Assembly: GCA_963729215.1 (NCBI GenBank)
Contig: CAVSND010000011.1
Location: forward strand, 2,836 to 66,835
Length of the DNA: 64,000 nucleotides
Direction: 5' to 3'
From: an uncultured Acidobacteriota bacterium
GTDB taxonomy: Bacteria > Acidobacteriota > Vicinamibacteria > Vicinamibacterales > CAVVIG01
Both the position numbers and the translations under genes were made by a program. Below are positions 2,342 to 62,355 of this stretch, in pieces. Numbering within the stretch: position 1 is the first letter of the stretch; the number at the start of each line of letters is the position of its first letter. The notes below the pieces were generated by a model, which was not told the DNA's origin, ran no database searches, and worked only from the letters and a program-made list of their open reading frames with translations.

Positions 2342-2776
2342 ATGTCTGATGCCCCGCCACAAGAGTCCGCCCATAGACGCCCGCACACAGCGCCGATGGC
2401 CGGTCCGTTTCTCGAATGTGATCTGACGGTAGAGGTCGATCGGCTCCACCGTGAGACGACGTGGGACACGGGTCAGAACGCCAGAACGCTCATAAAGTAC
2501 GACGACTTCCGCGTGGTCCTAACCGTGCTGAAGGCCAATGCTCACGTGCCCGAACACCAGACGACTGGACGAATCTCCGTCCACGTACTGTCAGGACACA
2601 TTCGGCTGAACGCGTCTGGACGCACATTCGATCTTCGATCGGGGAGTTTACTCGCCCTGGATCAGGGAGTCCCTCATGCCGTCGAAGCCCTTCAGGAGAG
2701 CGCGTTCCTACTCACGATCGCCTGGCCTGGCAGGGCGCCGGACTCAATCGGGGAAGCGGAACGACAAGCCGGGTGA
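2342..2776 (+). CDS. cupin-domain protein
   Basis: ATG at 2342 preceded by GGAGG (2333-2337). The translation has a two-His cupin motif ('VPEHQTTGRISVHVLSGHIRL') and lies in a clean single frame. Confidence 0.55.
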   Translation: MSDAPPQESAHRRPHTAPMAGPFLECDLTVEVDRLHRETTWDTGQNARTLIKYDDFRVVLTVLKANAHVPEHQTTGRISVHVLSGHIRLNASGRTFDLRSGSLLALDQGVPHAVEALQESAFLLTIAWPGRAPDSIGEAERQAG

Positions 2777-3329
2777 TGAGACGCCCCTGACGATCTTCAC
2801 GATCGGGCACTCCACGCGCCCGATCGACGAATTCATCCGCCTCCTCAAGGCACACGGCGTGGAGCGCGTCGTCGACGTGCGGACGATTCCACGCTCACGA
2901 CACAATCCGCAATTCAATCGCGACCAGCTGTCTCCGGCTCTGCACCGACGGAAGATTCACTATCGACACATGCCTGGGCTGGGCGGCTTGCGCCGTGCGC
3001 GGCCCGACTCCGTGAACGCCGGGTGGCGCAATGCCAGCTTTCGTGGCTATGCCGATTACATGCAGACCCCGGAGTTCGAAGACAGCCTGGAGAGTTGCAT
3101 TGACCTGGCGAAACGGGAACGCGTCGTCCTGATGTGCGCGGAGGCGGTGCCGTGGCGTTGCCACCGATCGCTGATTGCGGACGCGTTGCTGGCGAGAGGT
3201 ATCAATGCGAGTGAGATTACCAGCCGCATTCGCACGCGGCTTCATTCACTGACGCCGTTCGCACGGGTCAAAGGAACGCACGTCACATATCCTGCAATCA
3301 GAGTGACGTCATCATCGGCGAGCGTGTAA
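2776..3329 (+). CDS. DUF488-family protein; probable start is ATG 2776 overlapping the cupin TGA (TGATG), with a 1-nt frame error in the C-run at 2784-2787
   Basis: The downstream frame gives 'LTIFTIGHSTRPIDEFIRLLKAHGVERVVDVRT...', the canonical DUF488 N-terminus. The only in-frame ATG (2676) would overlap the cupin gene by 100 nt. ATGAGACGCCCCTGA would read MRRP-LTIFTIGHS if one C were restored. Confidence 0.55.
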
Positions 3330-3602: not shown

Positions 3603-4904
3603 TTAGAGCCGAGCCGAAGACGGCGTCAGGAACGCGTAGCGCAGGATCCGGATCACATTCACCGTGTCGACGAGGGACGCGGCAAACAAGGACCATGCGG
3701 CGGCGCTGACGAACGGAATGGCATCGAAGGCAAGGCCGCCCGCCAGCGCGGGCACGCCGAACAGCCACAGCACGAACGCGAGTTCCTGCCCTGTGCGCCA
3801 GGGCATCTCGTGCTGCGACGGGACGGGACCCTTGTATCCGGTGTTGGCGTACGCCCAATACCACGCAAAAATCGGCAGCAATCGCCCTTCCATGCCGACG
3901 ACCATCTGCGCCAGGAATCCGACGAGGCCGAAGACACCGTACGCCATCGCGACGCGCAGCGTGTTCGGCGATGGCTCGGCGACTGTGAGCCAGACGCCAA
4001 GCAGGGAGGCGACGGCGAGCCAGACGAACGATGCGCCCGCGTGCAGGACCGCGGGGTCTGGCGTGCGCACCTTGGGCGGACGCGGACGCGGACGGCGCAA
4101 CATCCACACGACCTGCGAGAAAAACGCGGCCAGCGCTCCGACGATGGTGAGCGCAAAGATCCACGCGAACGGACCGCGCCACAACAGTGTGACGAACAGG
4201 CCGGTCACGCCCGTTTGAAGAAGCACCGCGCTGAGCCACAGACGCGGTCCGCTGGGCATGGCTGCGGGCAGAATCATCGGCAGCAGTCGATACGCCACGC
4301 CGACCACCATCATCGTGGCCCAGCCGAGCGCGGCGAGGTGCGCGTGCGCGAAGACGTTGGCGAGCACGAACCCCGGCAGAAAGTGATAGACCTTGTCGAA
4401 TCCGATGAGCACGCCGAGGGTGGCGGCGGCGAGGATGTTGAGAAACGCGAGCATGATGTGCGCGCTGATGGCGCGCGGCAGCGACGCCTGACGCAGGCGC
4501 CGGGCGACGTGAACGCCGACCAGGATAATGCCCGTGCCGACCGTGATGGCCGACCACGCCATGCCGCCGTACTCCTGGAGCCAGAAGTGCGCCACCATGC
4601 CGACGATGCCGATGAGGACGAGGGCAAACGCGGTGTAGTCGAGCCACGTGGCCGGGATCCAGACGCGCAAGGCGACCGGTCCGACGACGTAGAGCGACCC
4701 GAGGATGGAGGCGGTAATCCAGCCGAGCGTCACCAGGTGCACAATCGCCAGCATCCGCGAGTGGTAGAAGAAACCGGACACGCCGCGCGGATCGAGCGCC
4801 ACCGCCAGGCACGCCAGCGCAAACGCGACGTGCGCGACCCCGAAGTAGAGGACCGGCAGCAGGCGCGGCGGCAGTTGGCTGCGGGGTGCCGGTGAGGCGG
4901 TCAC
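3603..4904 (-). CDS. polytopic (about 12 TM) membrane protein with multiple conserved His; possibly NnrS-like heme-copper membrane protein
   Basis: 433-aa ORF in a single frame, highly hydrophobic with repeated His-containing segments ('HLVTLGW', 'HAHLAALGW'). The family assignment is a guess from architecture and context. Confidence 0.5.
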   Translation of the reverse strand: MTASPAPRSQLPPRLLPVLYFGVAHVAFALACLAVALDPRGVSGFFYHSRMLAIVHLVTLGWITASILGSLYVVGPVALRVWIPATWLDYTAFALVLIGIVGMVAHFWLQEYGGMAWSAITVGTGIILVGVHVARRLRQASLPRAISAHIMLAFLNILAAATLGVLIGFDKVYHFLPGFVLANVFAHAHLAALGWATMMVVGVAYRLLPMILPAAMPSGPRLWLSAVLLQTGVTGLFVTLLWRGPFAWIFALTIVGALAAFFSQVVWMLRRPRPRPPKVRTPDPAVLHAGASFVWLAVASLLGVWLTVAEPSPNTLRVAMAYGVFGLVGFLAQMVVGMEGRLLPIFAWYWAYANTGYKGPVPSQHEMPWRTGQELAFVLWLFGVPALAGGLAFDAIPFVSAAAWSLFAASLVDTVNVIRILRYAFLTPSSARL

Positions 4905-4905
4905 G

Positions 4906-5584
4906 TCAGCGGGGAGCGTCTCTCAGCGCCCAGAGCGGGTAGTCGATGCCGGCGAGCCGATTGATGACGATCGCCTGCAGCGTCAGGATGGCCACGGCGA
5001 TCTCGATCACGAGCAGGTGGAACGGTCGTGTCACGATCCCGAGCGAGATGATGAGGGTCGTCGCGCCGGCGGGCGGGTGCGCCGCTTTCGCCAGAATCAT
5101 CAACGCGCCCGTCGACGCCAGCGACAGCGCCGCGGCGCCGACGCGCGCGAGCGACACGCCGGTGGCCATCGCCGGCGGCGCGTCCTGCAGGCCGAACAGC
5201 CACAGCGCACCGTATCCGCAGACGATGCCGATCGCGTGCCCGTAGATCGTGTGCCGAGGGCTGGCGGCCGGCGCGCGCGGGCGTGAAGAAGAACAGAAAC
5301 GCGGTCGGGCCCAGCGAGGGAAACACGAACGGCGTGCGGGACACCATCGCGACCGCCGCCAGGAGCGCGATCGTGATGAAGCCGTTCAGAAACATGAACA
5401 GGGCCCAGATGGGGCGCTCCGAATAACGCGTCAGCAGGTGGGTGATCTGGAGTCGTGCGGCAAGGCTCCGCGCCACCTCCGGGGCGTGGACGACGAGCGG
5501 CGGTCGGGGCGGGCGCTCAGCCACGCGGACCCCACTGGCGGAGGCGCGCGTCGAACGACACCACGTACCAGAGCAGTCCGCCAC
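4906..5584 (-). CDS. HPP-family integral membrane protein; 1-nt frameshift about 5262
   Basis: The N-terminal frame gives '...PSLGPTAFLFFFTPARAGRQP'. The C-terminal frame gives 'RHTIYGHAIGIVCGYGALWLFGL...HPPAGATTLIISLGIV' (HPP motif). Removing one T at about 5262 joins 'QP' to 'RHTIYGH'. The start codon is uncertain. Confidence 0.55.
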
Positions 5585-5756
5585 TCAACACGAACAGCAC
5601 GCCCGACGCGATGGCGGTCGGCACGAGGACGACGAACTGTCGCGCAAACAGCGCGTCGAGCGCCGCGGCGACGAGCCACAACTGGATCACCACGAGCAAG
5701 GCGATGAGGACCAGCACGGCGGAGAAGAGAATCGAGCCCTGCTGCCGGGTTTCCAC
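5517..5756 (-). CDS. small two-TM membrane protein, GTG start 2 nt after the Rieske stop
   Basis: 79-aa hydrophobic ORF ('ILFSAVLVLIALLVVIQLWLVAAALDALF...IASGVLFVLSGGLLWYVV') tightly coupled to the upstream gene. Confidence 0.3.
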   Translation of the reverse strand: METRQQGSILFSAVLVLIALLVVIQLWLVAAALDALFARQFVVLVPTAIASGVLFVLSGGLLWYVVSFDARLRQWGPRG

Positions 5757-5757
5757 A

Positions 5758-6246
5758 CTACACCTCGACGCCCGTCGCCACGAGATCGGCGCCGCGCTGC
5801 TCGATCACAATGCGCGGCAGGCGCCGCGTCGGCGGCCCCGCCAGCGGGAGCCCTTCGCGCGCGGAGAACGATCCCTTGTGGCAGGGGCAGGCCAGCACGT
5901 CGTCGCCGGGCCGGTGGACGACCGCGCACGACAGGTGGGTGCAGACCTGCGAGAACGCGTCGATACGTCCCGCCGCGTCACGCACCAGAATGCACGGGTC
6001 ATCGTCGGTCGGGTAGCGGAACAACAACGAGCCTCCTGGCGCAACCTCGTCGGCGGCAGCGATTCGCCTCGCAGGCGGGGCGGGCGCGCGGCCCGTCAGG
6101 CCGATGAACGCGATCAGGACGTTGACGCTCGCCAGCAGGCCCGAACCGAGCGTGAGAAACTTCGCCAGTTCCCGCCGCGTCATGTAGTTGTCTTCGTCCC
6201 ACCGGACGGGGAAGTCCTCGCGCCAGCGCGGACGTTCGTCAGCCAT
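5758..6246 (-). CDS. membrane-anchored Rieske [2Fe-2S] protein with Tat-like RR motif in its anchor
   Basis: 'CTHLSC...CPCHKGSF' Rieske boxes. The N-terminus '[28 protein letters not shown]' resembles an uncleaved twin-arginine signal anchor. Its ATG overlaps the upstream stop as TGATG. Confidence 0.8.
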
Positions 6247-6872
6247 CAATGGGCCTCCAGCAGTGCCGCGACATCGTACGGATCGGCCGGCGGCTGTGAT
6301 CGCCTGAGCGAGCTGAGGGGAATCACCGCCACGTTCACGCGGGTCACCTCGGTGGGCACCAGGACGAAGACCTTGGTGCGCACCTGCTGATCGCCGAACT
6401 GCCAGTCGTTGACCGCCCGTCCCTGTCGCGTCCGCATGATCTCTTCGATCGTCGTGAACGCCAGCGCGCCCGAGGGACACACGGTGGCGCACATCGGACG
6501 CCGGCCCGTGCTCGTGCGGTCGTAGCACATGTCGCACTTCATCATCTGATCGGCGTCGCCGTCGTACTTGGGCACGCCGAACGGGCACGCGAGCACGCAG
6601 TTCGAGCAGCCGATGCAGCGCGGCTTGAGCGAGCTCTGGACGACGCCCTCGGCGGTCTGCTTGATGGCGTCGGCGGGACAGACCTGCGCGCAGATCGGGT
6701 CTTCGCAGTGCATGCACACCTGCGGCGCCGTCTGCACACTGTCGCGCCGCTCGATCGTTTCGAGGTGGATGAGCGATCGCCCGCGGTGCGTGTCGCATTC
6801 CTCGCACGCCTGCACACAGGCCTGGCACCCGATGCAGCGCGAGTAGTCGATGAAGAACGCGAGCTCGCTCAC
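6246..6872 (-). CDS. 4x[4Fe-4S] ferredoxin-type electron-transfer subunit (DmsB/PsrB/FdhB-like)
   Basis: GTG start overlapping the Mo-subunit TGA (GTGA). Four Cys clusters: '[11 protein letters not shown]', '[14 protein letters not shown]', '[12 protein letters not shown]', 'CDMC...CATVCP'. Confidence 0.8.
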
Positions 6873-9093
6873 CGGATGCCTCCGGCCGCCGGCTCGAGCG
6901 CGGCGATGTCGCCGGACGGCTCCGGCGCCTTCGAGACGCGGACGGCGCAGATCTTGAACTCGGGAATCTTGGAGATCGGGATCGATTGCGCGGATCGTGC
7001 AGTTGTTCGCCGATCGGTCGAGCGGCCAGTGATACGGGACGAACACGGTGTCGGGCCGAATGGTTTTCACGACCTGCGCGCGGACGACGATGGCGCCGCG
7101 GCGGCTCTCGACGCGGACGAAATCGCCATCCACGATCCCGAGCGACCCGGCCAGGCGCGGATGGATCTCGCACTGCGGCTGCGGGTACTGGTCGACGAGC
7201 GCGCCGATGCGACGCGTCTGTGTGCCCGACAGATACTGCGACACCACGCGTCCCGTCGTCAGCACGATCGGGTAGTCGGCGTCCGGCTCTTCGGCGGCGG
7301 GCCGCCAGTCGGCCGGCTGAAAATGCGCCTTGCCGTCGGGATGGCCGAACTGCCAGCCTTCGTACAGGCGCGGCGTGCCGGGATGATCGAGCGACGGGCA
7401 CGGCCAGAACACGCCCATCTCGCGATCGATGCGCTCCCACGTGATACCGGCGTAGTCGGCGACGCCGCCTTTCGAGGCGATGCGCAGCTCTTCGAAGATG
7501 TCGCGCGTCGACTCGTACGCGAACTTGTCGCCCGCGCCGAGCCGTTTCGCGAGGTCGCAGATGATCCGCCAGTCCTGCCGCGCGCCCGTCCGGCGGCTGG
7601 ACGACCTGGCGATGATGGATCACGCGCCCCTCGACGTTGGTCGTCGTCCCTTCGTCTTCTTCCATCAGCGAGCCGGGGAGCACGAGGTCGGCGTAGCGCG
7701 CCGTCTCCGACATGAAGAAGTCGATGACCGTGAAGAACTCGAGGCGGCTCAGGGCTTCGCGGATGAAGTCGCCGTCGGGCAGCGACACGGCCGGGTTGAA
7801 GCAGAGCAGCAGCAGGCCCTTGATGCGGCCGTCGTGGATCGCTTCGAGCAGCGGCACGGCCGACAATCCGGTATGCGGGATGGTGGATTCCTCGACGCCC
7901 CACACGCCGGCGATGTATTCCCGGTGCGCCGGGTTCTCGAGGTCGCGCGCACCCGGCAGCTGATCGCATTTCTGTCCCTGTTCGCGCGCGCCCTGGCCGT
8001 TGCCCTGGCCGGTGATCATCGCGTAGCCGCAGCCTTCGCGCCCGATGCGGCCCGTGGCCACCACCAGGTTGATGGCGGCCATGCAGTTCTCGACGCCCTT
8101 CGAGTGGTGCTCGATGCCGCGGGCGTGCAGCAGGAAGCTGGTCTCGGCCGGCCCCCACATTTCGGCCGCGCGCACGATCATCGAGGCGGGCACGCTGGCG
8201 ACCGTCGCCGCGTAGTCCGGGGTGTAGCGCTCGACGATGGCCTCGACGGCGTCCCAGCCGGTGGTATGCGCCGCGATGAACTCGCGGTTGATCCAGCCGC
8301 GCTGCACCATGACGTGGAGCATGCCGTAGAAGACGCCGATGTCGCCGCCCGAGCGCACGGGGATGAAGAGGTCGGCGGTGCGGGCAATCGGCGTCATGCG
8401 CGGATCGAGCACGATGAGCTTCGCGCCGTTCTCCCGCGCCTGCCAGAGATAGTCGGTGGTGATCGGGGCGCACTCGGCGATGTTCGCGCCCGCGACGAGA
8501 ATCACCTTCGCCTTCGGGATGTCGCTCCAGGGGTTGGCGCTGCGATCGATGCCGAGAATCTTCTTCGACGCGGCCGCCGCCGACACCATGCAGAGCCGGC
8601 CGTTGTAGTCGATGTTCGCGGTGCGCACGGCCACCCGCGCGAACTTGCCCATCAGGTACGCCTTCTCGTTGGTCAGCGAGGCGCCGGTCAGCACGGCGAA
8701 GGCGTCCCGTCCGTAGGCGGACTGGATGCGCTGGATCTCGCGCGCGGTACGGTCGAGCGCGGTGTCCCAGTCGATCGGTTGGAAGCCGCGCGCCTCGTCG
8801 CGAACGAGCGGCGTCAGCAGCCGATCCGGATGCTCGTCCTGCATGTAGCGCTTCACGCCCTTGGGGCAGAGCTTTCCCTTGTTGAAGGGGAATTCCTCCC
8901 AGGGCTCGAAGCCGACGATCTTCTCGTCCTTCACCTTGAGCTGGATGCCGCACTGCTGGCCGCAGAAGCAGCAGTGGGTCGGCACGATCCGGTCGGGCTC
9001 GCCGCGCGTGGTCCAGCCGCCGGCCGGTTCCCGGTGGAGATGCGGGCCGAATTGCGCCACGAGATCCGGGATCGACGCCGGCAGTCTGGCCAT
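6869..9093 (-). CDS. molybdopterin (bis-PGD) oxidoreductase catalytic subunit of the Nas/Nap/NarB type; no signal peptide; two 1-nt frameshifts (about 7557 and about 6940)
   Basis: N-terminal 4Fe-4S motif '[12 protein letters not shown]'. Mo-ligand region '[18 protein letters not shown]' matches the Nap/Nas 'RxCMxS' signature. After frame correction the sequence continues '...VVQPPDGR | [31 protein letters not shown]...' and ends '...AIDP | [35 protein letters not shown]'. The ORF-track 1111-aa product is a cross-frame artefact. Confidence 0.75.
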
Positions 9094-10119
9094 TACGCGC
9101 CGCGCCTCCAGAGCGCGTCTTGCGTCAACGCGAGGTTCTTGCGGCGGCAGGCCGGACAGATGTCCTGATAGTGCGCGGTCGTCTCTGTCCGGTGCGCTCG
9201 ACTGTCACCGGCCGCCTCGTATCTGATTCCCAGCTCGCGCTCGACCTGCTTGAGATCGTCGATGTGCATCCGCGACGCGAACGGTTCGCCGCATCGCGCG
9301 CAGCGGGCCGCCTCGCCCTTCGCGCCGGTTTCGCGATAGAAGGCGACGCCGAGCTGCGCGGGCCGCTGGAAGATGTGGAAGAACTTGCCGAACGGCAGGT
9401 ACAGCAGGGTGAAGATCACCGTGACCGCGTGCAGCTGCGACAGGAACACGAAATGCAGCCCGCGCATCAGGTGGGTCGAGACGGTCAGGAAGACGCCGGT
9501 GATCGACACCGCGAAGAGCATCACCAGCGGCAGCAGATCAGCCCCGAACTGCTGGACCGCAAGGGCGCCGCGGTCGCTGGCGCGCCGCCACATCGCCAGG
9601 GACACGCCGATGGCCGACCATCACGAGCACGGCCGAGATGTCCAGCACGTTGAACACGAGCGGCGCAAGCGGACTCGCCAGATCGAACGTAAACACGCGC
9701 AGGCCAAAGACGAACGCCTGGTAGCGCTCCTGCGCGGCCCCCGCCGTCTCGAAATGAATCCACCCGAAGGACAGGGGGAACGTCACCGCCGCGGCGAGAA
9801 TGCAGCCCCAGAAGATGAACCAGTGTGCCGCCCACCGCAACGGCGATCGTTTCTCGATGAACCGCTGCGCGACGATGTTCACGGCGAAGAGTGCGGCGAG
9901 GCGGGAGAGGTTCTGCGCCACGCGCGAGGGCGCGAAGAACAACCGCCAGCCGCGTCGCCAGAAGAGACGCGTGGGCGGTTTCGTCAGCCACATCGAGTAG
10001 CGGTACCCGAGACCGAAGGCCGAAAACACACTGGCGCCGGCGTACGGGACAAGGGCCGCGTCGAAATCCCTGAGCCGCCGGCTGCCGAAGTAGATGCCGG
10101 CGAGGACCAGTGACGCCAT
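9093..10119 (-). CDS. NarI/HdrE/DsrM-like di-heme cytochrome b membrane subunit with C-terminal Cys4 zinc-ribbon-like tail; frameshift about 9540-9605
   Basis: '[12 protein letters not shown]...' has about 4 TM segments, then '[28 protein letters not shown]' (NarI-like His-containing helix), then 'CARCGEPF...CPACRRK'. The stop TAA overlaps the Mo-subunit ATG as TAATG. Confidence 0.55.
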
Positions 10120-10187
10120 GAACAGGCCCCATCCGGTGGCGCGAGCGACGTCAGCGCGGGGAGAAGCCGTCACGGACGGAGTATAGG

Positions 10188-11627
10188 CTACTCGGGCGAG
10201 TCCGGGCTGAGATGCACGTGGCCCATCAGGCCGCCGTCCGCGTGGTCCAGGATATGGCAGTGGAACATCCACATGCCCGGCCGCTCGTCGAAGACGACGA
10301 CGAAGCGGATCGTGCCTTCCATCGGCACGTCGAGCGTGTCCTTCCACGCCATCGGACGGATCGGTTGAAGCTGTTCGTCCAGCGGCAGGAAAAAGAAGCC
10401 GTGGAGATGGATCGGATGCGCCCACTTCGTCTCGTTCTTCACGGTCCAGATCTGCGTCTCGCCGACCCTGGCGAGAAATGGCCGGGCCTTCCAGAACGGC
10501 GCGCCATTCACCTGGAACTCGGACTTCCCGTTCGCGCCCGCGGGCGGCAGCGTCAGGACCATGTCCACGTGCGTCGCTCCCGCGAGGCTCGGCGGCACGA
10601 TGTCCCGATGCAATGCGGGCATCTGCGGTTTCGGCAGCGCAGGCTCGTCGCTGAACGCAATCGTCAGGACGTCCTCGGGAATGCGATTTTCGACGCTGCC
10701 GTACCCCCGGTTGTACAACGCCGCTTGCAACGTGAGCGTCCCGCCTCGTGGTCCGGTCGGCGCCACAATCACGTCCATCCGTTCGCCCGGCGTGATGAGC
10801 AGCGTATCCTTCGTCTCCGGGCGTTCCTGCAGGCCGCCGTCGCCGCCGATGACGGTGAATGTCTGCCCGTCGAGATCGAGGAAAAAGAAACGGCTCCTGG
10901 CCGCGTTGACGATCCGCCAGCGCTGCGGCGCGCCGGAGCGTGCGCGGATGGTCGGCAGGATCCTGCCGTTCGCCAGGACGTAGAGGCCTTCGCGGCCGAA
11001 CACCGTGCCCACCGGCCCGCCGGTGTCCGGCGAGTCGAGAACGCCGTGGCTGTCAAAGCCGATGTCGCTCAGGACGAGCGTCAGCTGGTCGGCGACACCC
11101 ACGCCGTCGTCCGGATCGTCGACCAGCAGCGCGCCGTAGAGGCCGAACCCCACCTGCGCCGCGGACATGACGTGCGGGTGATACCAGTAGAGCCCCGCAT
11201 CGCGCACCGTGAAGTCGTACGTGAACGTCTCGCCGCGTTTGACCTCCGGCTGCGACACCTCGGGCACGCCGTCCATTTCGATCGGCACCCGCACGCCGTG
11301 CCAATGGACGGTGGTCGGCTGAGGAAGATCGTTGGTGAAGTGCACGATGACGCGGTCGCCGACGTGTGCGCGGATGAGCGGCCCGGGGATGCCGCCGTTG
11401 TACGTCCAGGCCTGGACCGTGTGCTTGTTGCCCACGTCGACGTCGGCCACGCGGGCGGTCAGGTCGATTTCGACGATTTTCGGGTCGGGGTTGCGGTCGC
11501 GGGCTTCGGCCAGCTTGATCCCCTGATCCCAGTTGGCAGGCGCGAGCGACTGCGAATCCGCCGCCGCGCCTGCGCGCGCGACCAGCAGAAGGGCGACACA
11601 GGCCGAGGCGCGCCACCGCGTGCTCAT
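10188..11627 (-). CDS. three-domain multicopper oxidase (laccase/CueO-like), Sec signal peptide
   Basis: 'HWHGVRVP', 'WYHPH', 'HPIHLHGFFF' and 'HCHILDHADGGLMGHV' copper-binding motifs. Signal peptide 'MSTRWRASACVALLLVARAGAAA'. Confidence 0.85.
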   Translation of the reverse strand: MSTRWRASACVALLLVARAGAAADSQSLAPANWDQGIKLAEARDRNPDPKIVEIDLTARVADVDVGNKHTVQAWTYNGGIPGPLIRAHVGDRVIVHFTNDLPQPTTVHWHGVRVPIEMDGVPEVSQPEVKRGETFTYDFTVRDAGLYWYHPHVMSAAQVGFGLYGALLVDDPDDGVGVADQLTLVLSDIGFDSHGVLDSPDTGGPVGTVFGREGLYVLANGRILPTIRARSGAPQRWRIVNAARSRFFFLDLDGQTFTVIGGDGGLQERPETKDTLLITPGERMDVIVAPTGPRGGTLTLQAALYNRGYGSVENRIPEDVLTIAFSDEPALPKPQMPALHRDIVPPSLAGATHVDMVLTLPPAGANGKSEFQVNGAPFWKARPFLARVGETQIWTVKNETKWAHPIHLHGFFFLPLDEQLQPIRPMAWKDTLDVPMEGTIRFVVVFDERPGMWMFHCHILDHADGGLMGHVHLSPDSPE

Positions 11628-11633
11628 GTAAAT

Positions 11634-11650
11634 ATGTATTCAGGATACAT
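11634..11650. promoter_or_regulatory. AT-rich perfect inverted repeat ATGTAT-tcagg-ATACAT in the divergent promoter region between the multicopper-oxidase operon and the Rrf2 gene; candidate Rrf2/NsrR operator
   Basis: 6-5-6 palindrome in an otherwise GC-rich genome, 36 nt upstream of the Rrf2 start and 7 nt upstream of the multicopper-oxidase ATG. It resembles the ATRTAT-N5-ATAYAT Bacillus-type NsrR half-site arrangement. Confidence 0.45.
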
Positions 11651-11685
11651 GTTTAAGGTAGAATTTGCCAACGGCAGGAGACACC

Positions 11686-12135
11686 GTGACCCTCACAAAA
11701 TTCTCGGACTATTCCCTCCGCCTGCTGATCTACCTGGGGTTGCATGAAGGCCGGCTCGTGCCGGTCGGCGAGATCAGCCGCGCCTACCGGGTCTCGCCGC
11801 ACATCATGGTCAAAGTCGTGCAGCGGCTGACCGAGCAGGAACTGGTGGCCAGCGTCCGCGGGCGGAACGGCGGCCTGCGCCTGAACAAGCCGCCCGCCGA
11901 GATCAATGTGGGCCGCCTGATTCGGCGTACCGAGCCCGGCTGGGATCTGGTCGAGTGCTTCGACGCGGCGACGAATACGTGCCCGATCGACGGCGCCTGC
12001 GGGCTCAAGGGGGTCCTGAAGCGCGCGCAGCGCGCGTTCTTCGACGTCCTCGACGATCACACCCTTGCCGATTTTCTTCCCCGTGCGCCGGCGCTGATCC
12101 GGCTGCTGAACCAGTCCCTCGAAGCCAATCCATAG
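11686..12135 (+). CDS. Rrf2-family transcriptional regulator (NsrR/IscR-like)
   Basis: '(V)TLTKFSDYSLRLLIYLG...ISRAYRVSPHIMVKVVQRL' Rrf2 HTH, with three Cys ('CFDAATNTCPIDGAC') for the FeS cluster. GTG at 11686 with AGGAG upstream. The ORF track used TTG 11665. Confidence 0.8.
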   Translation: MTLTKFSDYSLRLLIYLGLHEGRLVPVGEISRAYRVSPHIMVKVVQRLTEQELVASVRGRNGGLRLNKPPAEINVGRLIRRTEPGWDLVECFDAATNTCPIDGACGLKGVLKRAQRAFFDVLDDHTLADFLPRAPALIRLLNQSLEANP

Positions 12136-14993: not shown

Positions 14994-17001
<2,008 letters not shown>

Positions 17002-41858: not shown

Positions 41859-44800
41859 TTACTTGGTCGCCTCGGCCGGCTCCAGCGCCGCCGCCTGCTG
41901 ACGGCTCTTCAGCCACGCCTGCACCTGCGCCATGTAGGTGTAGAACACCGGCGTCAGATACAGCGTCACGAGCTGTGAAAACAGCAGCCCGCCGACCACG
42001 ACCAGGCCGAGCGGCTGCCTGGCCTCGCCGCCCGCGCCGTACCCGAGCGCGATCGGCACGGCGCCGAGCAGCGCCGCCATCGTCGTCATCATGATCGGCC
42101 GGAAGCGGATCAGGCAGCCCTGGTAGATGGCCTGCTCGGGCGTGCTGCCCTGGCGCTCGGCGTCGAGCGCGAAGTCGATCTGCATGATCGCGTTCTTCTC
42201 GACGATGCCGATCAGCATGATCATGCCGACGAAGGCGTAGATGTTGAGATCCATCCCGAACAGGACGAGCGTCAGCAGCGCGCCGAAGCCGGCCGAGGGC
42301 AGGCCGGAGAGAATCGTCAGCGGGTGGATGTAGCTCTCGTAGAGGATGCCCAGCACGATGTAGACGACCATGATGGCGATCACGAGGAGCACGGCGAGGT
42401 TCGACAGCGAGTTCTGGAACGCCTTGGCCGCGCCCTGGAACTGGCCGCTGACGCCTTCGGGGAGCGTGGCCGTGGCCACGGTGCGCACGCGGCTCAGCAC
42501 GTCGCCGAGCGACGCGCCGGGCGCGAGACCGAACGAGATGGTGACCGCCGGCAGCTGGCCGTAGTGGTTCACGGTCTGCGGGCCGATGACCTGCGTGGCG
42601 CGGGCCAGCGTGTCGAGCGGCACGACGATGCCGGCCGATCCGCTCGGGCCGTTGGCGCCCGTGCCGCCGTTGCCGGCAGCAGCGGCCGCATTGATGGCCG
42701 CCGCCGTCCCGGGGGCCGGCGTGGCCTTGAAGTAGAGGAGCGAGAGCGCCGCCGGGTCGGACTGGTACTGCTCGGCGAGCTCGAGCAGGACCTTGTACTC
42801 GTTGACCGGCGCGTAGATCGTGGACACCCAGCGCGGACCGTACGCGTCGTAGAACGCGTTCTCGATGGCGTTCGCCGTGATGCCGAGCGCCGCCGCCTTG
42901 TCGCGATCGATCTCGACGTTCACCTGCGGGCTCGTGACCTGGAGGTCGCTCGTCAGATCGGCGAGGCCTTCCACGTCCGCCAGCGCCTTCATCAGCGTGC
43001 GCGACGCCGCGTAGAGCGCCTCGCGGTCCGGCGACTGCATCGAGGACCTGATACAGGCTCTTGCTCACCTGGCCGCCGATGCGGATGGTCGGCGGGTTCT
43101 GCACGAACGTGTGCATGCCGACGACCGTCGCCAGCTGCGGCCGCAGCTTCTCGATGATCTGGTTGGCCAGCTCCTTCCGCTCGCTGCGCGGCTTGAGGTG
43201 GACGACGATCTGGCCGAGGTTGGGACCGCCAAGCGTGTTCGATGCGCTGCCGCCAATCGTCGAGACGAGCGCCTCGACGTTCGGATCGTTGCGGATGATG
43301 TTCGCCACCTCGCCCTGGTATTCGACGAGCTTGTCGTAGGACGTGCCCTGCGCGGCCTCCGTCGTCACCGCCAGCTGGTCCGTGTCCTGATCGGGAATGA
43401 ACCCCTTCGGGACGTAGACGAACAGCGCGCCCGTGAGGACCAGGAGGACGATGGACGCCGCCATCGTGGCGCCGCGATGCCTCAGCACGATCTGAAGTGT
43501 CCGGTCGTAGCTGGCCAGCAGGCTCGCGAACGCGCGTTCGGTCGCCACCGCGAACCGCGAACCGCCCTCGTGCCCGGGTGCCGCGTGTCCGCCTTTTTCA
43601 TCCGCGTTGTGCGCATGCTTGGGCTTCTTGAGGAAGCGGCTGCAGAGCATGGGCGTGAGCGTCACCGAGACGACGCCAGAAATCAGGATGGCGACGCAGA
43701 TCGTGACCGAGAACTCACGGAACAGCCGGCCGAGCACGCCGCCCATGAAGAGGACGGGGATGAACACGGCCGCCAGCGACAGCGTCATCGACACGATCGT
43801 GAACCCGATTTCGCGCGACCCGACGAGCGACGCGGTGAGCGGGTCTTCACCCATTTCGACGTGCCGGTAGATGTTCTCGAGCATCACGATCGCGTCGTCC
43901 ACGACGAAGCCGACCGAGAGAATGAGCGCCATCATCGACAGGTTGTCGAGGCTGTACCCGAGCATGTACATGACCGCGAACGTGCCGATGATCGAGAAGG
44001 GCAGCGCGAGGCTGGGAATGACGGTCGCCCACACGTTCCGCAGGAACACGAAGATGACCATGATCACGAGCGCGAGCGTGAGCGCCATGGTGATCTGCAC
44101 GTCCGATGACGATTCGCGGATCGTGTCCGACCGATCGTAGAGGACGTCCATGTGCACGCTGGTCGGCAGCTCCATCTGGAACTGGGGCAGCAGGGCCTTG
44201 ACGGCGTCGGCCACGGCGATGGTGTTGGTCCCGGGCTGCCGCTGGATGCCGAGCGTGATGCCGCGCCGTTCGTCGTCCCGCGTGTAGTACCACGACGCCG
44301 TCCGCTGATCCTCGACGCCGTCGATGACGGCGCCGAGCTCGCGCAGCCGCACCGGCGCGCCATTGCGGTACGAGACGATCATGTCCTTGTACTGCTCGGC
44401 GTTCATCAGCTGGCCGGTCGCCTGCAGCGTGAAGGACTTGTGCGGCCCGACCAGCGTGCCGCTGGGCACGTTGCTGTTCCAGTTCCGCAGCTGCGTCTCG
44501 ACTTCGTTGATGCCGATCTGGCGTGACGCCAGCGCGTGCGGGTCGAGCTGCACGTGCACGGCGTATTTCTGGCTGCCGAGCACCTGGACCTGCGCCACGC
44601 CGTTGACCATCGAGATGCGCTGCGCGATGCGCGTCTGCGCGTACTCGTCGAGCGTCCACGGCGGCAGCGTCGTCGAGGTGATGACGAGGTAGAGGACGGG
44701 CTGATCCGCCGGGTTGACCTTGGTGAAGGTCGGCGGCGTCGGCATGCCCTGCGGCAGCAGGCGCGAGGCCTGCGTGATCGCCGACTGCACGTCGATGGAG

Positions 44801-45111
44801 GCGCCGTCGAGGCTCCGGTTCAGGTCGAACTCGAGCGTGACGAGCGTCGAGCCGAGCGAGTTCACCGACGTCATCGACTCGAGGCCGGCGATCATCGAAA
44901 ACTGGTTCTCGAGCGGCGTCGCGACGGACGCGCCCATCGTCTCGGGGCTGGCGCCGGGCAGCTGCGCCGTGACGAGGAGCGTCGGGAAATCGACGTTGGG
45001 GAGGTCGCTGACCGGGAGCGATCGATACGCCACCAGGCCGAAAAGCGCGATCGCCGCCATGAGGAGGCTGGTGGCGATCGGCCGCTTGATAAATCCTTCG
45101 GAAATGTTCAT
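41859..45111 (-). CDS. RND efflux permease (AcrB/MdtB/MdtC-like), paralog 1; frameshift about 43045
   Basis: 'MNISEGFIKRPIATSLLMAAIALFG...' about 690 aa, then the C-terminal half in ORF 41859-43040 ('...FALDAERQGSTPEQAIYQGCLIRFRPIMMTTMAALLG'). Its ATG overlaps the paralog-2 stop (ATGA). Confidence 0.85.
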
Positions 45112-48345: not shown

Positions 48346-51300
48346 TTAAGCCGTGACCGGTTTTGCGGCCGCCGTCCCGCGAATCTTGCTCGTCCGGAAC
48401 ATCTGCGCCATGTAGGTGTAGACGACCGGCGTCAGGTAGAGCGTCAGTAACTGGGAGAAGATGAGGCCGCCCACGACCGCCAGGCCCAGCGGCCGCCGCG
48501 CTTCGCCGCCCGCCCCGAACCCGGCCGCGATCGGCAGCCCGCCGAGCAGCGCGGCCATCGTCGTCATCATGATGGGCCGGAAGCGGACGAGGCAGCCCTC
48601 GTAGATCGCCTCGGCCGGCGTCATCCCGAGCTTGCGCTCGGCGTCGAGCGCGAAGTCGATCTGCATGATCGCGTTCTTCTTGACGATCCCGATCAGCATG
48701 ACAAGACCCACGAACGAGTAGATGTTCAGCTCGTTGCCGAACAGCCACAGCGTGACGAGGGCGCCGAGGCCGGCCGACGGCAGGCCCGAGAGAATGGTGA
48801 TCGGGTGAATGTAGCTCTGGTACAGCGCGCCCAGGACGATGTAGACGACGCCGATCGCGACAAACAGCAGCATGCCGAGGTTCTTGGTGGACTCCTGGAA
48901 GACCTTGGCCGAACCTTCGAAGCCGACGTTGACGGTCGCCGGCAGCAGTCCCGCTGCGAGCTGGCGGATGCGATCGACGGCGGCGCCGAGCGACACGCCG
49001 GGCCGCAGCCCGAACGAGATGTTCACCGACGGCAGCTGCCCGAAGTGGTTGACGCTTTGCGGGCCGACGGTTTCCTTCGTCGACACGACGGACGGCAGCG
49101 GAATGAGCGCGCCGCGCGGCGTCTTGAAGGTGAGCTTGTCGAGCGAATCGGCGTACTCCTGGTACTTGGGATCGAGCTCGAGCAGCACGCGGTACTGCGT
49201 CGTGTCGCCGTAGATCGTGGACGACCACTTCGGGCCGAAGCCCGCGGAGAGCGCGTTCTCGATTTGGGTGGCGTTGAGGCCGACGGCGGCCGCCTTGTCG
49301 CGATCGATGACCAGGCTCACCTTCGGGCTCTTGATCTCGAGGTTGTTCGAGACGTCCTGGATCTCCGGGATCCGCGTCTCCATCGCCGCGCTCAGCCGGT
49401 CCGCCCAGGTGTAGAGCTGATCCGTGTCGGCGCTTTGCACCGTCACGTTGTAGCTGCTGTTGCCCTGGCCGAAGCCGATCTGCAGCGCCGGCGGGATCCG
49501 GACGAACGCGCGGAAGTTCGGGAACCGCAGCAGCTGCGGCCGGAGCTGCTGCGCGATCTGCTGCGCCGAGACCGGACGCTGCGCCCGCGGCACGAGCTGG
49601 ATCGGCATCTGAAAGTTCGAGCTCCCGCCGCCGTTGTAGTTGTTGCCGCCGAGGTTCATCACGAAGCTGTCCACGTATGGGTTCTTCCGGATGATCTCGG
49701 CCGCGCGCAGCCCGCCGGCGGCCATGTCGTAGAACGAGGTGCCCTGCGCCGCGCTCATGTTGACGAAGAGCATGTCGTTGTCCTGGTCCGGGATGAAGCC
49801 CTTGGGCACGATGCCGTACATGCGGACCGTGCCCGCCAGCACCCCCACGAACACGAAGACCATCGCGATGCGGTGGCGCAGCACGATGCCCGAGGCTCCA
49901 CTTGTAGCCGTCGAACACCGCGTCGAACGCGCGATCGAGCAGCCCGGCCAGGCCGCGCTTGGTATGCACGACGCGCAGGAAGCGGCTGCACAGCATCGGC
50001 GTCAGCGTGATCGACACGACGCCGGAAATGAGAATCGCCGCCGTGATCGTGACGGCGAACTCGCGGAACAGCCGGCCCAGGATGCCCGCCATGAACAGGA
50101 TCGGGATGAACACGGCGGCGAGCGACGTGGTCATCGTCAGGATCGTGAAGCCGATCTCCTTCGATCCGTTGAGCGACGCCGTCAGCCGATCCTCGCCGGC
50201 CTCGATGTGGCGCACGATGTTCTCGAGCATCACGATCGCATCGTCTACGACGAAGCCGATCGAGAGGATGAGCGCCATCATCGAAAGGTTGTTCAGGCTG
50301 AAGCCGAGCAGCTGCATGACGGCGAACGTGCCGAGGATGGAGAACGGCAGCGCCAGCGCCGGGATGAGCGTCGCCGACCCGTTGTGGAGGAATGCGTAGA
50401 TCACGCCGACCACGAGCACCAGCGTGATGAGCATCGTCCACTGGATATCGGCGAACGCCTTGCGGATGGTGCGCGAACGATCCTGGCGAATCAACAAGTG
50501 CGCAGACGGGGGCAGCTGCGCTTCGAGCGCCGGCAGCACGGCGCGCACCGCGTCGGTCACCTGGATGATGTTGATGCCGGGCTGCCGCTGGACGCCCATG
50601 TTGATGGCGCGGCGGCCGCCCTCGCGCGTGTAGAACCACGCGGCCGACCGCGTGTTCTCGACGCTGTCGAGCACCGTCGCCACCTGGTCGAGCCGGACCG
50701 GCCGCCCCTGGCGGTACGCGACGACGATCGACCGGAACTGCGCGGCGTTGTTCAGCTGGCCGCCCGCCTTGAGGTTGAACGTCTGGTGCGCGCCGAACAG
50801 CTGCCCGGTGGGCAGGTTGACGTTCCAGTTCTGCAGCGCCTGATCGACTTCGTTGATGCCGATCTGCTGCGCGCGCAGCTTGTCGGGATCCACCTGCACG
50901 CGTACCGCGTACTTCTGCGCGCCGTTCACCTGCACCTGCGACACGCCGCTCACCATCGAGATGCGCGGGGCCAGGACCGTCTCCGCGTAGTCGTCGAGCA
51001 GCGACATCGACAGGCTGTTCGACGTCAGGCTCAGCTGCATGATGTCCTGATCGGCGGGGTTCTGCTTGCGGAACGTCGGCGGATTCGGCATGCCCGCCGG
51101 CAGCAGCGGCATCACTTCGGAGAGCGCCGTCTGGACGTCGACGACCGCGCTGTCGATCGAGCGCCCGAGGTCGAACTGCAGCGTGACGTTGCTGCTGCCG
51201 GTGCTGCTCTGCGAGGTCATCGAGTCGATGCCCGCGATCGTCGTGAGCTGCCGCTCGATCGGGCTGGCGACCGCCGCGGCCATCGTGCCGGGATCGCCGC

Positions 51301-51457
51301 CCGGGAGTCCCGCCTGGATCTGAATCGTCGGGGAATCCACCGCCGGCAGGTCGCTCACCGGCAGCGCGCGGTAGGCGACGATGCCGAACATGGCGATGGC
51401 CGCCATCAGGAGGCTGGTGGCGATCGGGCGCCGGATGAAGAGTTCGGAGACGTTCAT
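48346..51457 (-). CDS. RND efflux permease, paralog 3; frameshift about 49885
   Basis: 'MNVSELFIRRPIATSLLMAAIAMFG...DGYKWSLG' then the C-terminal half in ORF 48346-49884. A stretch of several hundred nt around 49890-50390 is nearly identical to 46650-47150 of paralog 2. Confidence 0.85.
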
Positions 51458-60661: not shown

Positions 60662-62104
60662 TCACTTCCCGCCCGCGTACATCTTGGTGAGCCGGTACAG
60701 AAACTCGCGGCCTTCCATCAACGACCGCACGCGGATGCATTCGTTGAGCCCGTGGGCATTCGTCTTCGCGCGATCAAGAAACATCCCAGAGACCCCGTAC
60801 GTCGGCACGCCTGCGGCGGTGAGGAAACGCCCGTCGTTCGTGCCGGATGTTGCGCGGGCACGACCGGGACGCCGGGGAACAGCTCGCTGGTCAGCTTTTC
60901 GATCGGTCCCATGATGTCGGCCGTCAGCGTCGGCGGCGGTCCGGCTTTCTCCGGCTCGGCCTGGAACGCCACTTTCACACCCGCATCACTGATCGTCCTG
61001 ATGAGCGTCTGACGAATCTCCTCGGGCGCATGGCCGGGGAAGATGCGGCAGTTGACGTTGGCCGTGACGTGTTGCGGCAGGGCGTTCTGGGCATGGCCGC
61101 CGTTGATCATCGTGGCGACGCATGTCGTGTGCAGCATCCCGTTGAGATTCGGGTCCTTCTTGAGCCGCGTCGACGGCGGCCGCATCGCCGCTGGCGGCGA
61201 CGGCCTTCATGTCGGCGCCCTGGGCTCCGCCGACGATCTCGCCGAACTTGGCGAAGTAGCCGCGAGTCGCGTCGTTGAACTCGACGGGGAACTCGAACGC
61301 CTGGATTTTCGCGAGCGCCTGGGCCATCTGGTAGATGGCATTGTCCGGCGTCGGTCGTGACGAGTGGCCGCCCTGGTTCACCGTTTCCAGCGTAAAGTCC
61401 TGATAGAGCTTCTCACCGGCCTGAATGCCGTTGTACTGGTACGCGCCGGTCTTGCCGTCCAGCCGGCCGCCGCCGCCCTCGTTGAGCGCGAAGGCCGCGT
61501 CCATCAGCGCTCGGTGATGTTCGAGGAGGTAGCGGACGCCGTTGAACGTTCGGGGGTCTCCTCGCCGCATGTGAGCGCGAGCTTGATGCCGCGCGTCGGT
61601 TTGTAGCCGTCCTGTTTGAAGCGGACCATCGAATCCGCGAAGATCGACGCCATGGACTTGTCATCGGCCGCACCGCGCGCGTAAAAGTAGCCGCCCTCTT
61701 CGACCAGCTTGAAGGATCGCGGCTCCAGTCCTCGCGCTTGGCTTCGACCACGTCGAGATGAGCCAGCAGCATCAAGGGCTTCAGACTCGCATCCGTCCCC
61801 GGCAGCAGAGCGATCAGGTTGCCATTCTTCGGCTGATTGGGCGGCGCGATGAGATGGAGGTCGTTCTCGGAATAGCCGGCCTGCACGAGGTGCGCCTTCA
61901 TGGCGTTTGCCGCCGCGGTGCAGGAGCCGACGGAGAGCGTCGTGTTGATCTCGATCAGTTCCTTGTAGAGCGCCCGGAACGCCTGCTCGCCGGCGCGAGC
62001 CGGGTTGGCACTGCTGCCTGGCCGGCACGCAGGTCTGCGCGTTGCCCCGCGCAGACGGCGGCGATCACAAGCAGGCTGATCGCGGGCGAATGGCTTTTGC
62101 GCAT
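60662..62104 (-). pseudogene. M20-family metallopeptidase (dipeptidase/ArgE-DapE-like) with signal peptide; at least 4 frameshifts
   Basis: The pieces 'MRKSHSPAISLLVIAAVCAG', 'FRALYKELIEINTT', 'LLAHLDVVEAKREDWSRDP', 'FKLVEEGGYFYARGAADDKSMAS', 'LALTCGEETPERS', 'GKTGAYQYNGIQAGEKLYQDFTLETVNQGGHSSRP' and '...TKMYAGGK*' are distributed over four overlapping minus-strand ORFs in all three frames. Confidence 0.55.
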
Positions 62105-62355
62105 TGGTCACGGGTCCTCTCGGTTTCGAGCCGGAGAATAGTCGGCCGCCTGGGATGAGCGTGCGAACGTCGTGCAACGCCGGGAGGGTGCCGGGGAACG
62201 TGTCGAAGAGTGACTTGAGTATACGCGCGGAAGCGAGTGTGCACGGGATTAGTCTCTGGTGACGTCGATGCGGCGAGTTTGGCACCAGTGAGGACTAGGG
62301 CCGCGCAAGTGCGAGCGTGGGAGATCGTTGTAAGTTTGCCTGGGTGCTTCAGGAA

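Follow-up and report, generated by a model that had tools for sequence, protein, structure and literature searches.

In the respiratory nitrate reductase NarGHI, a cytoplasmic catalytic subunit with a molybdenum bis(pyranopterin guanine dinucleotide) cofactor (Mo-bisPGD) is combined with a four-cluster iron-sulfur (FeS) subunit and the cytochrome b membrane anchor NarI, and the genes are linked to NarK-type transporters. The assimilatory enzymes NasC, NasA and NarB are characterized by an RLCM-type Cys motif, an N-terminal [4Fe-4S] cluster, the lack of an export signal, soluble electron donors (NAD(P)H, ferredoxin or flavodoxin) and linkage to an assimilatory nitrite reductase. Nas enzymes are said to serve assimilation only (PMC7331816; see also PMC10100899), and according to a family-wide phylogenetic study no member of the Fdh/Nas/Aio/Nap clade has four-cluster or membrane-anchor subunits (PMC7331816). 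Here we describe an operon in which a NasC-like catalytic subunit is encoded together with subunits of both kinds and with a Rieske protein. It lies in a 64,000-nucleotide stretch of DNA from an uncultured Acidobacteriota bacterium (contig CAVSND010000011.1); we call this whole stretch the window, and positions are counted from its first letter.

Other described systems share individual features with this operon. The arsenite oxidase AioAB pairs a Mo-bisPGD subunit from a Nas-related clade with a Rieske protein that has a twin-arginine translocation (Tat) signal, and it lacks both a four-cluster subunit and a cytochrome b; its catalytic subunit AioA is not known to have a protein ligand to the molybdenum and contains a 3Fe-4S cluster. 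Anchors of the NarI superfamily are also found in mycobacterial EtfD and in DsrM, HdrE, QmoC and TcuB, where the cytoplasmic partner is an HdrD/CCG-type domain, and none of these is known to have a Rieske protein or a Nas-type molybdenum enzyme. A Rieske-type partner, NasG, is known for the NasC protein of Paracoccus (PMC3475470). Haloarchaeal narB, narC and pNarGH clusters couple a nitrate reductase genetically to a Rieske protein and a cytochrome b, which in that case is of the bc type, the reductase being a periplasmic NarG-type enzyme with a periplasmic cytochrome carrier (PMC3509893). In Streptomyces, Nar1 is reported to depend on the bcc-aa3 supercomplex (PMC7931247). The haloarchaeal clusters and the Streptomyces case come closest as precedents for coupling a Rieske protein to a nitrate reductase.

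The operon resembles NarGHI in its predicted plan (a cytoplasmic Mo-bisPGD subunit, a four-cluster FeS subunit and a NarI-fold anchor), in its linkage to NarK-type transporters and in the two conserved heme-ligating His residues of the anchor's C-terminal helix. None of its subunits passes the Nar family models, however, and it differs further in that the place of NarG is taken by a NasC-like catalytic subunit whose ligand is a Cys, its FeS subunit has the size of DmsB or FdnH rather than NarH, its anchor has six transmembrane (TM) helices, a beta-loop and a Cys4 tail but no equivalent of NarI H66, and two further proteins, a Rieske protein and a DUF6755 protein, are added. In sequence the closest family is Nas (including the Paracoccus NasC-NasG-NasB system), but here the subunit has membrane-bound partners of a respiratory style, the Rieske protein is a Tat- and TM-anchored protein of the bc/Aio type rather than NirD-like, and linkage to NirBD is seen only where a separate canonical nas cluster adjoins the operon. 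Unlike the haloarchaeal clusters it has a NarI-type cytochrome b and a NasC-like Mo subunit without a Tat motif, and unlike AioAB it has a Cys (Cys168) and four cluster Cys residues that are invariant. We found no description of the operon, or of DUF6755, in the full-text literature searched, although absence there is not proof; a preliminary description of this DNA had likewise been aware of no Nas-type subunit wired to a NarI plus Rieske module. The operon is widely conserved but apparently undescribed. The reading we favor, with moderate confidence, is that the locus encodes a membrane-bound nitrate reductase of a previously undescribed architecture, with its active site facing the cytoplasm.

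Composition and conservation of the operon

The window has a G+C content of about 66% and consequently many long spurious open reading frames. Real genes were picked by codon-position GC and frame-by-frame translation, and domain assignments were checked against Pfam and NCBIfam models. Positions 3603-11627 are occupied by a tightly packed, translationally coupled operon of eight genes, all on the minus strand, in the 5' to 3' order multicopper oxidase, NarI-like anchor, Mo subunit, ferredoxin-type FeS subunit, Rieske protein, DUF6755 protein, HPP-family protein and a 433-residue protein. The overlaps TAATG (NarI-like/Mo), GTGA (Mo/FeS) and TGATG (FeS/Rieske) given in the preliminary description are all present; the oxidase and NarI-like genes are 14 nt apart, and the remaining junctions are 1 nt (Rieske/DUF6755), an 8-nt overlap (DUF6755/HPP) and 1 nt (HPP/433-residue gene). 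The same description had identified the operon's partner proteins as a DmsB-like four-cluster subunit, a Rieske protein, a NarI-like protein with a Cys4 tail and a three-domain oxidase, and all of these identities hold; the tail has the form CxxC...CxxC. It had counted six genes in 5517-12135, which is too few: the operon runs past 5517 into the HPP and 433-residue genes.

Scanning the anchor protein against one genome per species gave matches in at least 475 species genomes, and 80 loci were fetched; counts of gene context given below cover 82 loci. The NarI-like, Mo, FeS and Rieske genes are colinear on one strand in 80 of the 80 fetched genomes wherever the contig allows, and a DUF6755 gene follows the Rieske gene in most loci. 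The hosts belong to four phyla (Acidobacteriota, Myxococcota, Planctomycetota and Chloroflexota). The closest relatives are in Vicinamibacterales, with up to 89% nucleotide identity (locus L004), and other hosts include Terriglobales (among them the cultured Edaphobacter aggregans DSM 19364), Blastocatellia, Polyangia, several Planctomycetota, Herpetosiphon and Anaeromyxobacter, with A. oryzae represented by a complete genome. Clustering at 50% identity divides the anchor family (E <= 1e-3) into 1,098 clusters, and even a relative whose anchor is only 31% identical has the same gene order, together with NarXL-like regulators.

An anion transporter gene is located beside the core genes in 73 of the 82 loci; of the other nine, most are short or truncated sequences. 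The transporter is a NarK-like member of the major facilitator superfamily (MFS) in 49 loci, an HPP protein in 12, a SLAC1/TDT protein in 12 and a ClC protein in 6. For the NarK-like proteins, NarK is by far the best NCBIfam family, at 211-234 bits, which is below its cutoff of 311.7. Nitric oxide (NO) stress genes and regulators also recur near the core: RIC/ScdA in 20 loci, a Crp-family regulator in 13, and also NarXL-like systems, Hcp and hemerythrins. Neither a cytochrome c nor a cupredoxin was seen as a conserved partner.

One Acidobacteriota locus is particularly informative (L083, 1-10000). Here nasC, nirB and nirD, with a HEM4/GAF/ANTAR regulator, are directly upstream of genes for ClC, NarK-like MFS, anchor, Mo, FeS, Rieske and DUF6755 proteins, so that the genome has two paralogous Nas-type Mo subunits side by side. 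Because a canonical nas cluster adjoins the operon, the operon is tied to nitrate metabolism, yet it is not the organism's plain Nas system. L083 is also the only one of the eight family loci with Pfam-labelled genes to contain a NIR_SIR nitrite reductase gene.

The catalytic subunit and its partners

The Mo subunit (6869-9093, minus strand; domains Molybdop_Fe4S4, Molybdopterin and Molydop_binding) is exactly 740 residues long after removal of two extra bases. Its full length can be aligned with intact homologs from more than 120 clusters, at 77-96% identity (clusters made at 90% identity, each at least 77% identical to the Mo subunit), and nearly all of them are 739-741 residues long. An N-terminal C-x2-C-x3-C...C motif (C41, C44, C48 and C76) is invariant in 53 sequences, as are Cys168 and the motifs GRLCMVS and ITGQxNGQGxRE in family members from all phyla; none of the 53 N-termini contains a twin-arginine motif. 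On this reconstruction, the Nas/Nap-type Mo-ligand signature, the N-terminal 4Fe-4S site and the lack of a Tat signal proposed in the preliminary description are all borne out. The protein therefore shares with NasC the RLCM-type Cys motif, the N-terminal cluster and the missing export signal, and departs from it in lacking the soluble donors and the linkage to assimilatory nitrite reductase. The Joint Genome Institute annotation labels nearly all of its homologs 'assimilatory nitrate reductase catalytic subunit'.

For the clade placement of the Mo subunit, hidden Markov model (HMM) scores and active-site columns stand in for a reference phylogeny. The best-scoring family is NasC (NCBIfam equivalog NF047855), with 817.6 bits against a cutoff of 1100, followed by formate dehydrogenase alpha (TIGR01591; 632.7 bits, cutoff 666.25). 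All other models give far lower scores, among them two for NapA (285 and 281 bits, cutoffs 904 and 930), AioA (TIGR02693; 141.6 bits, cutoff 359) and narG (TIGR01580; 53 bits, cutoff 1084). The closest solved structures by sequence are enzymes of the FdhF type, and in alignments to 7qv7, 9t1s and 1aa6 the Mo-subunit Cys matches the Sec/Cys140 position of formate dehydrogenase (U140 in Escherichia coli FdhF). Met stands in place of the catalytic His141 of formate dehydrogenase and Thr (ITGQGNGQG) in place of Arg333 (VRGQNNVQG), and both replacements are invariant in the family; Met and Thr are the residues found at these positions in Nas and Nap. Formate dehydrogenase, which the preliminary description had named as an identity to be checked by phylogeny, is ruled out by the replaced His and Arg and by a score under the cutoff, and NapA by scores far below the cutoffs and by the missing twin-arginine motif; no genes for the Nap partners NapB, NapC, NapG or NapH were found in the operon. 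Because of the family scores, the replaced residues and the missing motif, the Mo subunit is best classified as a distinct NasC-like subfamily that is neither formate dehydrogenase nor NapA.

The ferredoxin-type subunit (6246-6872, minus strand; 208 residues) matches Fer4_11 (2.8e-20) and has 16 invariant cluster Cys residues, with 17 Cys invariant overall among 42 sequences, in agreement with its earlier designation as a DmsB-like four-cluster subunit. It has no signal peptide and no TM helix. The formate dehydrogenase beta, HybA and DmsB models each give about 103-105 bits, all below cutoff, and narH (TIGR01660) gives 39 bits against a cutoff of 524.

The NarI-like anchor (9093-10173, minus strand), the only cytochrome b candidate in the operon, has no Pfam match. 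Like the Mo subunit, it aligns over its whole length with intact homologs once corrected. An AlphaFold2 model made from a 36-sequence alignment (predicted local distance difference test score 92.7) places a three-stranded loop, predicted to be periplasmic, between TM3 and TM4 of its six TM helices and ends in a C-terminal domain with a small beta-ribbon, and its best structural neighbors among solved proteins are NarI and EtfD. The helical fold and a C-terminal helix motif H-x17-H (PFxKLxH) are those of the NarI superfamily (PF02665 fold). H246 and H264 align with the NarI heme ligands H187 and H205, and H117 is at the cytoplasmic end of TM3, like NarI H56. These three are the only invariant His residues in the family, versus four ligands in NarI (H56, H66, H187 and H205), and the alignment has no conserved His about 10 residues after H117, where an equivalent of H66 would be expected. 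One bis-His heme is thus well supported by the conserved residues; of the description of this protein as a NarI-like di-heme b subunit with a Cys4 tail, the NarI likeness and the tail stand, and the di-heme part is not established.

The tail is a zinc-ribbon-like Cys4 site (C289, C292, C337 and C340) in a conserved domain of about 95 residues. Its side of the membrane can be deduced from natural fusions in which a NarK-like MFS protein is joined to the N-terminus of the anchor; one of these (P0243) was checked residue by residue, and P0315 and P0331 have the same composition. MFS C-termini are cytoplasmic, so the anchor N-terminus should be cytoplasmic too and, with six helices in the model, the Cys4 domain is also predicted to be on the cytoplasmic side. 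Two apparent fusions of the NarI-like protein to the Mo subunit (P0353 and P0368) were discounted as proof of a cytoplasmic Mo subunit, as there is frameshift garbage at or around the junction.

The Rieske [2Fe-2S] protein (5758-6246, minus strand; 162 residues; Pfam Rieske 1e-10) has the sequence TRRELAKF, one TM helix and the boxes CTHLSC...CPCH, including the two disulfide Cys residues that define the type seen in bc1, b6f and Aio Rieske proteins. Its closest sequences in the PDB are the Rieske protein of the Thermus bc complex, AioB and PetC, and dioxygenase ferredoxins score much lower. The motif xRR[E/D]xxKF followed by a Gly/Ser-rich hydrophobic stretch is present in 48 of 48 homologs, and more distant relatives have the canonical twin-arginine motifs RRGFMK or RRGFLT, with textbook sequences such as DRRGFMKTLVGAAG. 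By alignment inspection for the positive-inside rule, both flanks of the TM helix are basic; Tat signals often have basic c-regions. The Rieske protein is thus likely, judging from its motifs, to be Tat-inserted with its domain facing the periplasm, and the motif and helix agree with the Tat-like signal anchor attributed to it earlier. A Nas system with a NirD-like Rieske protein, the kind of known complex considered in the preliminary description, is not what we see: the protein is of the bc/Aio type, and L083 holds a canonical NasC-NirB-NirD system separately. There is no gene in the operon for a bc-type cytochrome b, which is marked by pairs of heme-ligand His on helices B and D, the sole candidate having the NarI/EtfD fold.

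The DUF6755 gene (5517-5756, minus strand; PF20540 2.4e-11) encodes a small membrane protein with two TM helices. A 276-residue fusion of the Rieske and DUF6755 proteins in L084 was rejected as a frameshift artifact of a long-read contig. In two further loci (L089, 1-2097; L090, 1-3345) relatives of the anchor with 31-33% identity are followed directly by a gene for a Tat-type Rieske protein and, in L090, by a small TM gene (L089 ends at the Rieske gene). In both, the gene preceding the anchor, in place of Mo and FeS genes, is the C-terminus of a gene resembling aldehyde:ferredoxin oxidoreductase (AOR), and AOR-type enzymes are cytoplasmic. The pairing of the module with an AOR-like gene in these loci suggests that the Rieske protein belongs with the cytochrome b rather than with the Mo enzyme, and that the anchor, Rieske protein and small subunit are a portable membrane module, apparently common to different cytoplasmic pterin enzymes.

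Proposed function and competing explanations

Building on the gene content, order, coupling, conservation, folds, motifs and active-site residues observed, we infer the substrate, the electron donor, the membrane side of each subunit and the physiological role from homology and context. The NasC-like subunit, with its Cys ligand and N-terminal [4Fe-4S] cluster, would reduce nitrate to nitrite in the cytoplasm. Electrons would reach it through the soluble 4x[4Fe-4S] subunit, docked on the six-helix NarI-type cytochrome b with its cytoplasmic Cys4 domain. The cytochrome b would work with the periplasmic, Tat-inserted Rieske protein and the small DUF6755 subunit as a membrane module that is supplied with electrons by menaquinol (a periplasmic carrier is another possible donor) and moves them inward; to our knowledge all of the host phyla use menaquinone. 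Inward electron flow and proton consumption in the cytoplasm would conserve energy, as in NarGHI. The linked anion transporter (HPP here; NarK-like MFS, SLAC1/TDT or ClC elsewhere) would handle nitrate entry and nitrite exit, and the operon is probably expressed alongside NO-stress genes, under the control of an Rrf2/NsrR-type regulator in the window and of Crp/Dnr-type regulators in other genomes.

Nitrate is proposed as the substrate because NasC is the best-matching family, the active site has the Met and Thr of Nas and Nap, transporters are linked to the operon and NarK-like proteins are fused to its anchor, and a nas cluster (in L083) and NO-stress genes are its neighbors. The cytoplasmic orientation is proposed because the Mo subunit has no twin-arginine motif, because of the topology of the MFS fusions, and because NarI and EtfD serve cytoplasmic partners. 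The claim in the preliminary description that a Nas-type catalytic subunit has NarI-like, DmsB-like and Tat-type Rieske partners instead of NAD(P)H- or ferredoxin-dependent ones is thus backed by synteny, fold and active site, and by its departure from the published rule for the clade (PMC7331816). Of its 'quinol-level' NarI plus Rieske module, the two proteins are present and the quinol level follows by inference.

Several points weigh against a cytoplasmic, membrane-bound nitrate reductase. The Mo subunit falls below the curated NasC cutoff, and the substrate rests on homology and context for every member of the family. The anchor lacks the second ligand of the distal heme, which leaves a two-heme wire across the membrane unproven, and it is not obvious what a periplasmic Rieske protein would do in a plain NarGHI-like chain; the mechanism is weakest on the heme count and on the function of the Rieske cluster. 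The Tat motif of the Rieske protein could, by analogy with arsenite oxidase, export the Mo and FeS subunits as passengers. No NarJ-type chaperone was noted in the Pfam-labelled loci, though no search aimed at NarJ was made. Finally, one of the four indels that interrupt genes of the operon is 7 bp long, which is less typical of homopolymer sequencing error.

A more specific version of the membrane module can be put forward tentatively. The NarI-like, Tat-type Rieske and DUF6755 proteins may form a new kind of Rieske/cytochrome b module, with a fold unrelated to bc1 and b6f, that oxidizes quinol at a two-protein periplasmic site or exchanges electrons with periplasmic carriers, and that feeds interchangeable cytoplasmic pterin enzymes–NasC-like in the window and AOR-type in L089 and L090. 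We regard this as possible, at odds that fall well short of even.

A less probable alternative is that the operon encodes an ordinary assimilatory nitrate reductase, fed by the quinone pool or a membrane partner, that makes nitrite for ammonium assimilation and has no respiratory role. The names given to nearly all homologs, the top HMM match to NasC, the operon in L083 adjoining nasC-nirBD and an ANTAR/GAF regulator, and the precedent of NasG in Paracoccus (PMC3475470) all fit this explanation. We consider it unlikely in view of L083 itself, where a canonical NasC by NirBD is already present and the operon copy is a distinct paralog, and where the only NIR_SIR gene among the eight labelled loci is found. 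Moreover, respiratory complex iron-sulfur molybdoenzymes have partners of this kind, the Rieske protein is of the bc/Aio type with a Tat motif and TM helix and not NirD or Rieske_2, and the neighbors are NO-stress genes and Crp/Dnr regulators, not genes for nitrogen limitation.

The second alternative takes the Tat motif at face value: the Mo and FeS subunits would be exported as passengers of the Rieske protein, in the manner of AioAB, to work on a substrate in the periplasm, and the NarI-like protein would be their quinone-side anchor. It would account for the Rieske protein being the sole subunit with a twin-arginine motif (in all 48 homologs) and for AioB being among its closest solved relatives, and published trees put AioA within or next to NasC/NasA (PMC7331816). 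On the other hand, a periplasmic enzyme makes the near-universal linkage to four unrelated families of anion transporter, including fusions of NarK-like proteins to the anchor, hard to explain; the conserved Cys4 domain of the anchor is placed in the cytoplasm; its best fold matches serve cytoplasmic partners; and in L089 and L090 the module comes after a gene of the AOR type, whose enzymes are cytoplasmic. We think export rather improbable.

Third, the substrate or the direction of the reaction could be different, with nitrite being oxidized or chlorate, selenate or iodate being reduced; if the enzyme is an oxidizing one, electrons would leave through a high-potential Rieske protein for acceptors in the periplasm, for example the multicopper oxidase. 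The Mo subunit is under every curated equivalog cutoff, a periplasmic high-potential Rieske protein fits electron exit better than a quinol-to-nitrate chain, and in the window and L003 the operon begins with the oxidase gene. The oxidase is absent, however, from the other 80 loci and no conserved cytochrome c or cupredoxin was seen as a partner, the active-site motifs agree with Nas and Nap, and the context (NarK-like, HPP, NasC-NirBD, NarXL-like and NsrR-type genes) points to nitrate and nitrite, so this explanation is very unlikely.

The state of the genes in the window also has to be considered. The Mo gene has an extra G in a GGG run (~7585-7587) and an extra C in a CCC run (~6978-6980), the NarI-like gene has a 7-bp insertion (~9613-9619), and the HPP gene has an extra C (~5279-5281); thus there are three frameshifts in the core, where two had been claimed, and a fourth in HPP. 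None of the four is found in the nearest relatives (L002-L005) or in any homolog, the HPP indel being absent from L003 and L004. Unrelated genes of the window are split in the same way (41859-45111, 48346-51457, 14994-17001, 769-2073 and ~60718-62285). Two AcrB genes are divided across frames (ACR_tran positions 2-679 and 678-1019 in one, 2-520 and 523-1019 in the other), a NuoF-like gene has Complex1_51K in one frame and SLBB and NADH_4Fe-4S in another, and a hybrid histidine kinase and an M20 peptidase are probably split likewise. What had been called a NuoF-like diaphorase remnant is accordingly a full gene divided by another frameshift. The indel rate, about 1 per 7-8 kb over the window, is typical of an unpolished long-read assembly, and similar garbling is seen in other long-read metagenome contigs carrying the family. 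Because unrelated genes are split alike and the indels are missing in homologs, the frameshifts are most likely assembly-wide indel errors rather than gene decay, with a small residual doubt from the 7-bp insertion. That the operon is a decaying, non-functional pseudogene cluster in the source genome, as four frame-disrupting indels inside ~5 kb and an insertion resembling slippage rather than a homopolymer miscall might indicate, is hardly credible when codon-position GC bias remains strong across the shifted parts, the proteins, once corrected, reach full length and share 86-96% identity with intact homologs, and the same garbling affects unrelated genes and other contigs.

Lineage-specific genes and wider significance

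The first gene of the operon (10188-11627, minus strand) encodes a secreted three-domain multicopper oxidase (Cu-oxidase_3, Cu-oxidase and Cu-oxidase_2) that is below cutoff for the CopA and CueO models. The three domains and the secretion agree with the preliminary description, which had also made it a partner of the catalytic subunit; since it is found only in the window and L003 among the 82 loci, synteny rejects it as a conserved member of the complex. Separately, a Cu-oxidase fragment was seen near a homolog of the NorB-like gene in L087.

The last gene (3603-4904, minus strand) encodes the 433-residue protein, with 12 TM helices, and is beside the core only in the window, L003 and L022. 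It had been called NnrS-like, an identity that we reject because there is no HMM match and the fold is that of a heme-copper oxidase; the protein is a highly divergent, NorB/CcoN-like branch of the heme-copper oxidase/NorB superfamily. This gene and the multicopper oxidase are lineage-specific additions to the operon. As a side observation, several genomes have a convergent DUF488 gene adjacent to either the NorB-like gene or the nitrate reductase operon (window 2676-3329, plus strand; L083 13600-14139; L086 9260-9865; L087 9258-9944).

The HPP-family membrane protein, from a putative nitrite-transporter family (4906-5524, minus strand; TM_HPP 5.2e-25 after frame correction), had been noted correctly among the surrounding genes and is in fact encoded in the operon itself; HPP genes occupy the same position in A. 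oryzae and in Vicinamibacterales loci.

Upstream of the operon is a divergent Rrf2-family regulator gene, as previously reported (11665-12135, plus strand, with a likely true start at GTG 11683; Pfam Rrf2 2.5e-33). Its product is NsrR/RirA-like, scoring 127 bits with RirA and 120 bits with NsrR, both below cutoffs, and L003 has an Rrf2 gene at the equivalent position. The intergenic region contains a palindrome, TAAATATGTAT-TCAGG-ATACATGTTTA (11629-11655), with 11-nt arms that are 91% complementary. The 64-kb window contains a single copy of its core, ATGTAT-N5-ATACAT; L003 also has one, at the corresponding intergenic position, and the 82 loci contain no further copy. The palindrome, which we take to resemble NsrR-type operators, is a candidate operator.

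If the locus does encode a membrane-bound nitrate reductase, it would contradict the published rule on the partners of the Fdh/Nas/Aio/Nap clade, and a NarI-fold cytochrome b acting with a Rieske protein would be a new way of coupling the membrane to a cytoplasmic reductase. The more specific two-protein module, if real, would imply that a large share of the soil genes called nasA or nasC represent energy-conserving nitrate respiration in the four host phyla, and the family could then be an evolutionary link from Nas to the Aio/Idr enzymes, which have Rieske partners. The cultured carriers–Anaeromyxobacter oryzae, Edaphobacter aggregans DSM 19364 and a Herpetosiphon species–make these proposals directly testable. 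The family is common in soil genomes and metagenomes, as the numbers of Mo-subunit clusters and of species genomes with the anchor indicate, and it is routinely counted as assimilatory; many soil-bacterial genes labelled 'assimilatory nitrate reductase' may encode a membrane-bound enzyme instead. Such an enzyme would probably be energy-conserving, in which case the potential for nitrate respiration has been under-called in Acidobacteriota and other dominant soil phyla, and estimates of assimilation and dissimilation based on metagenomes would need revision.

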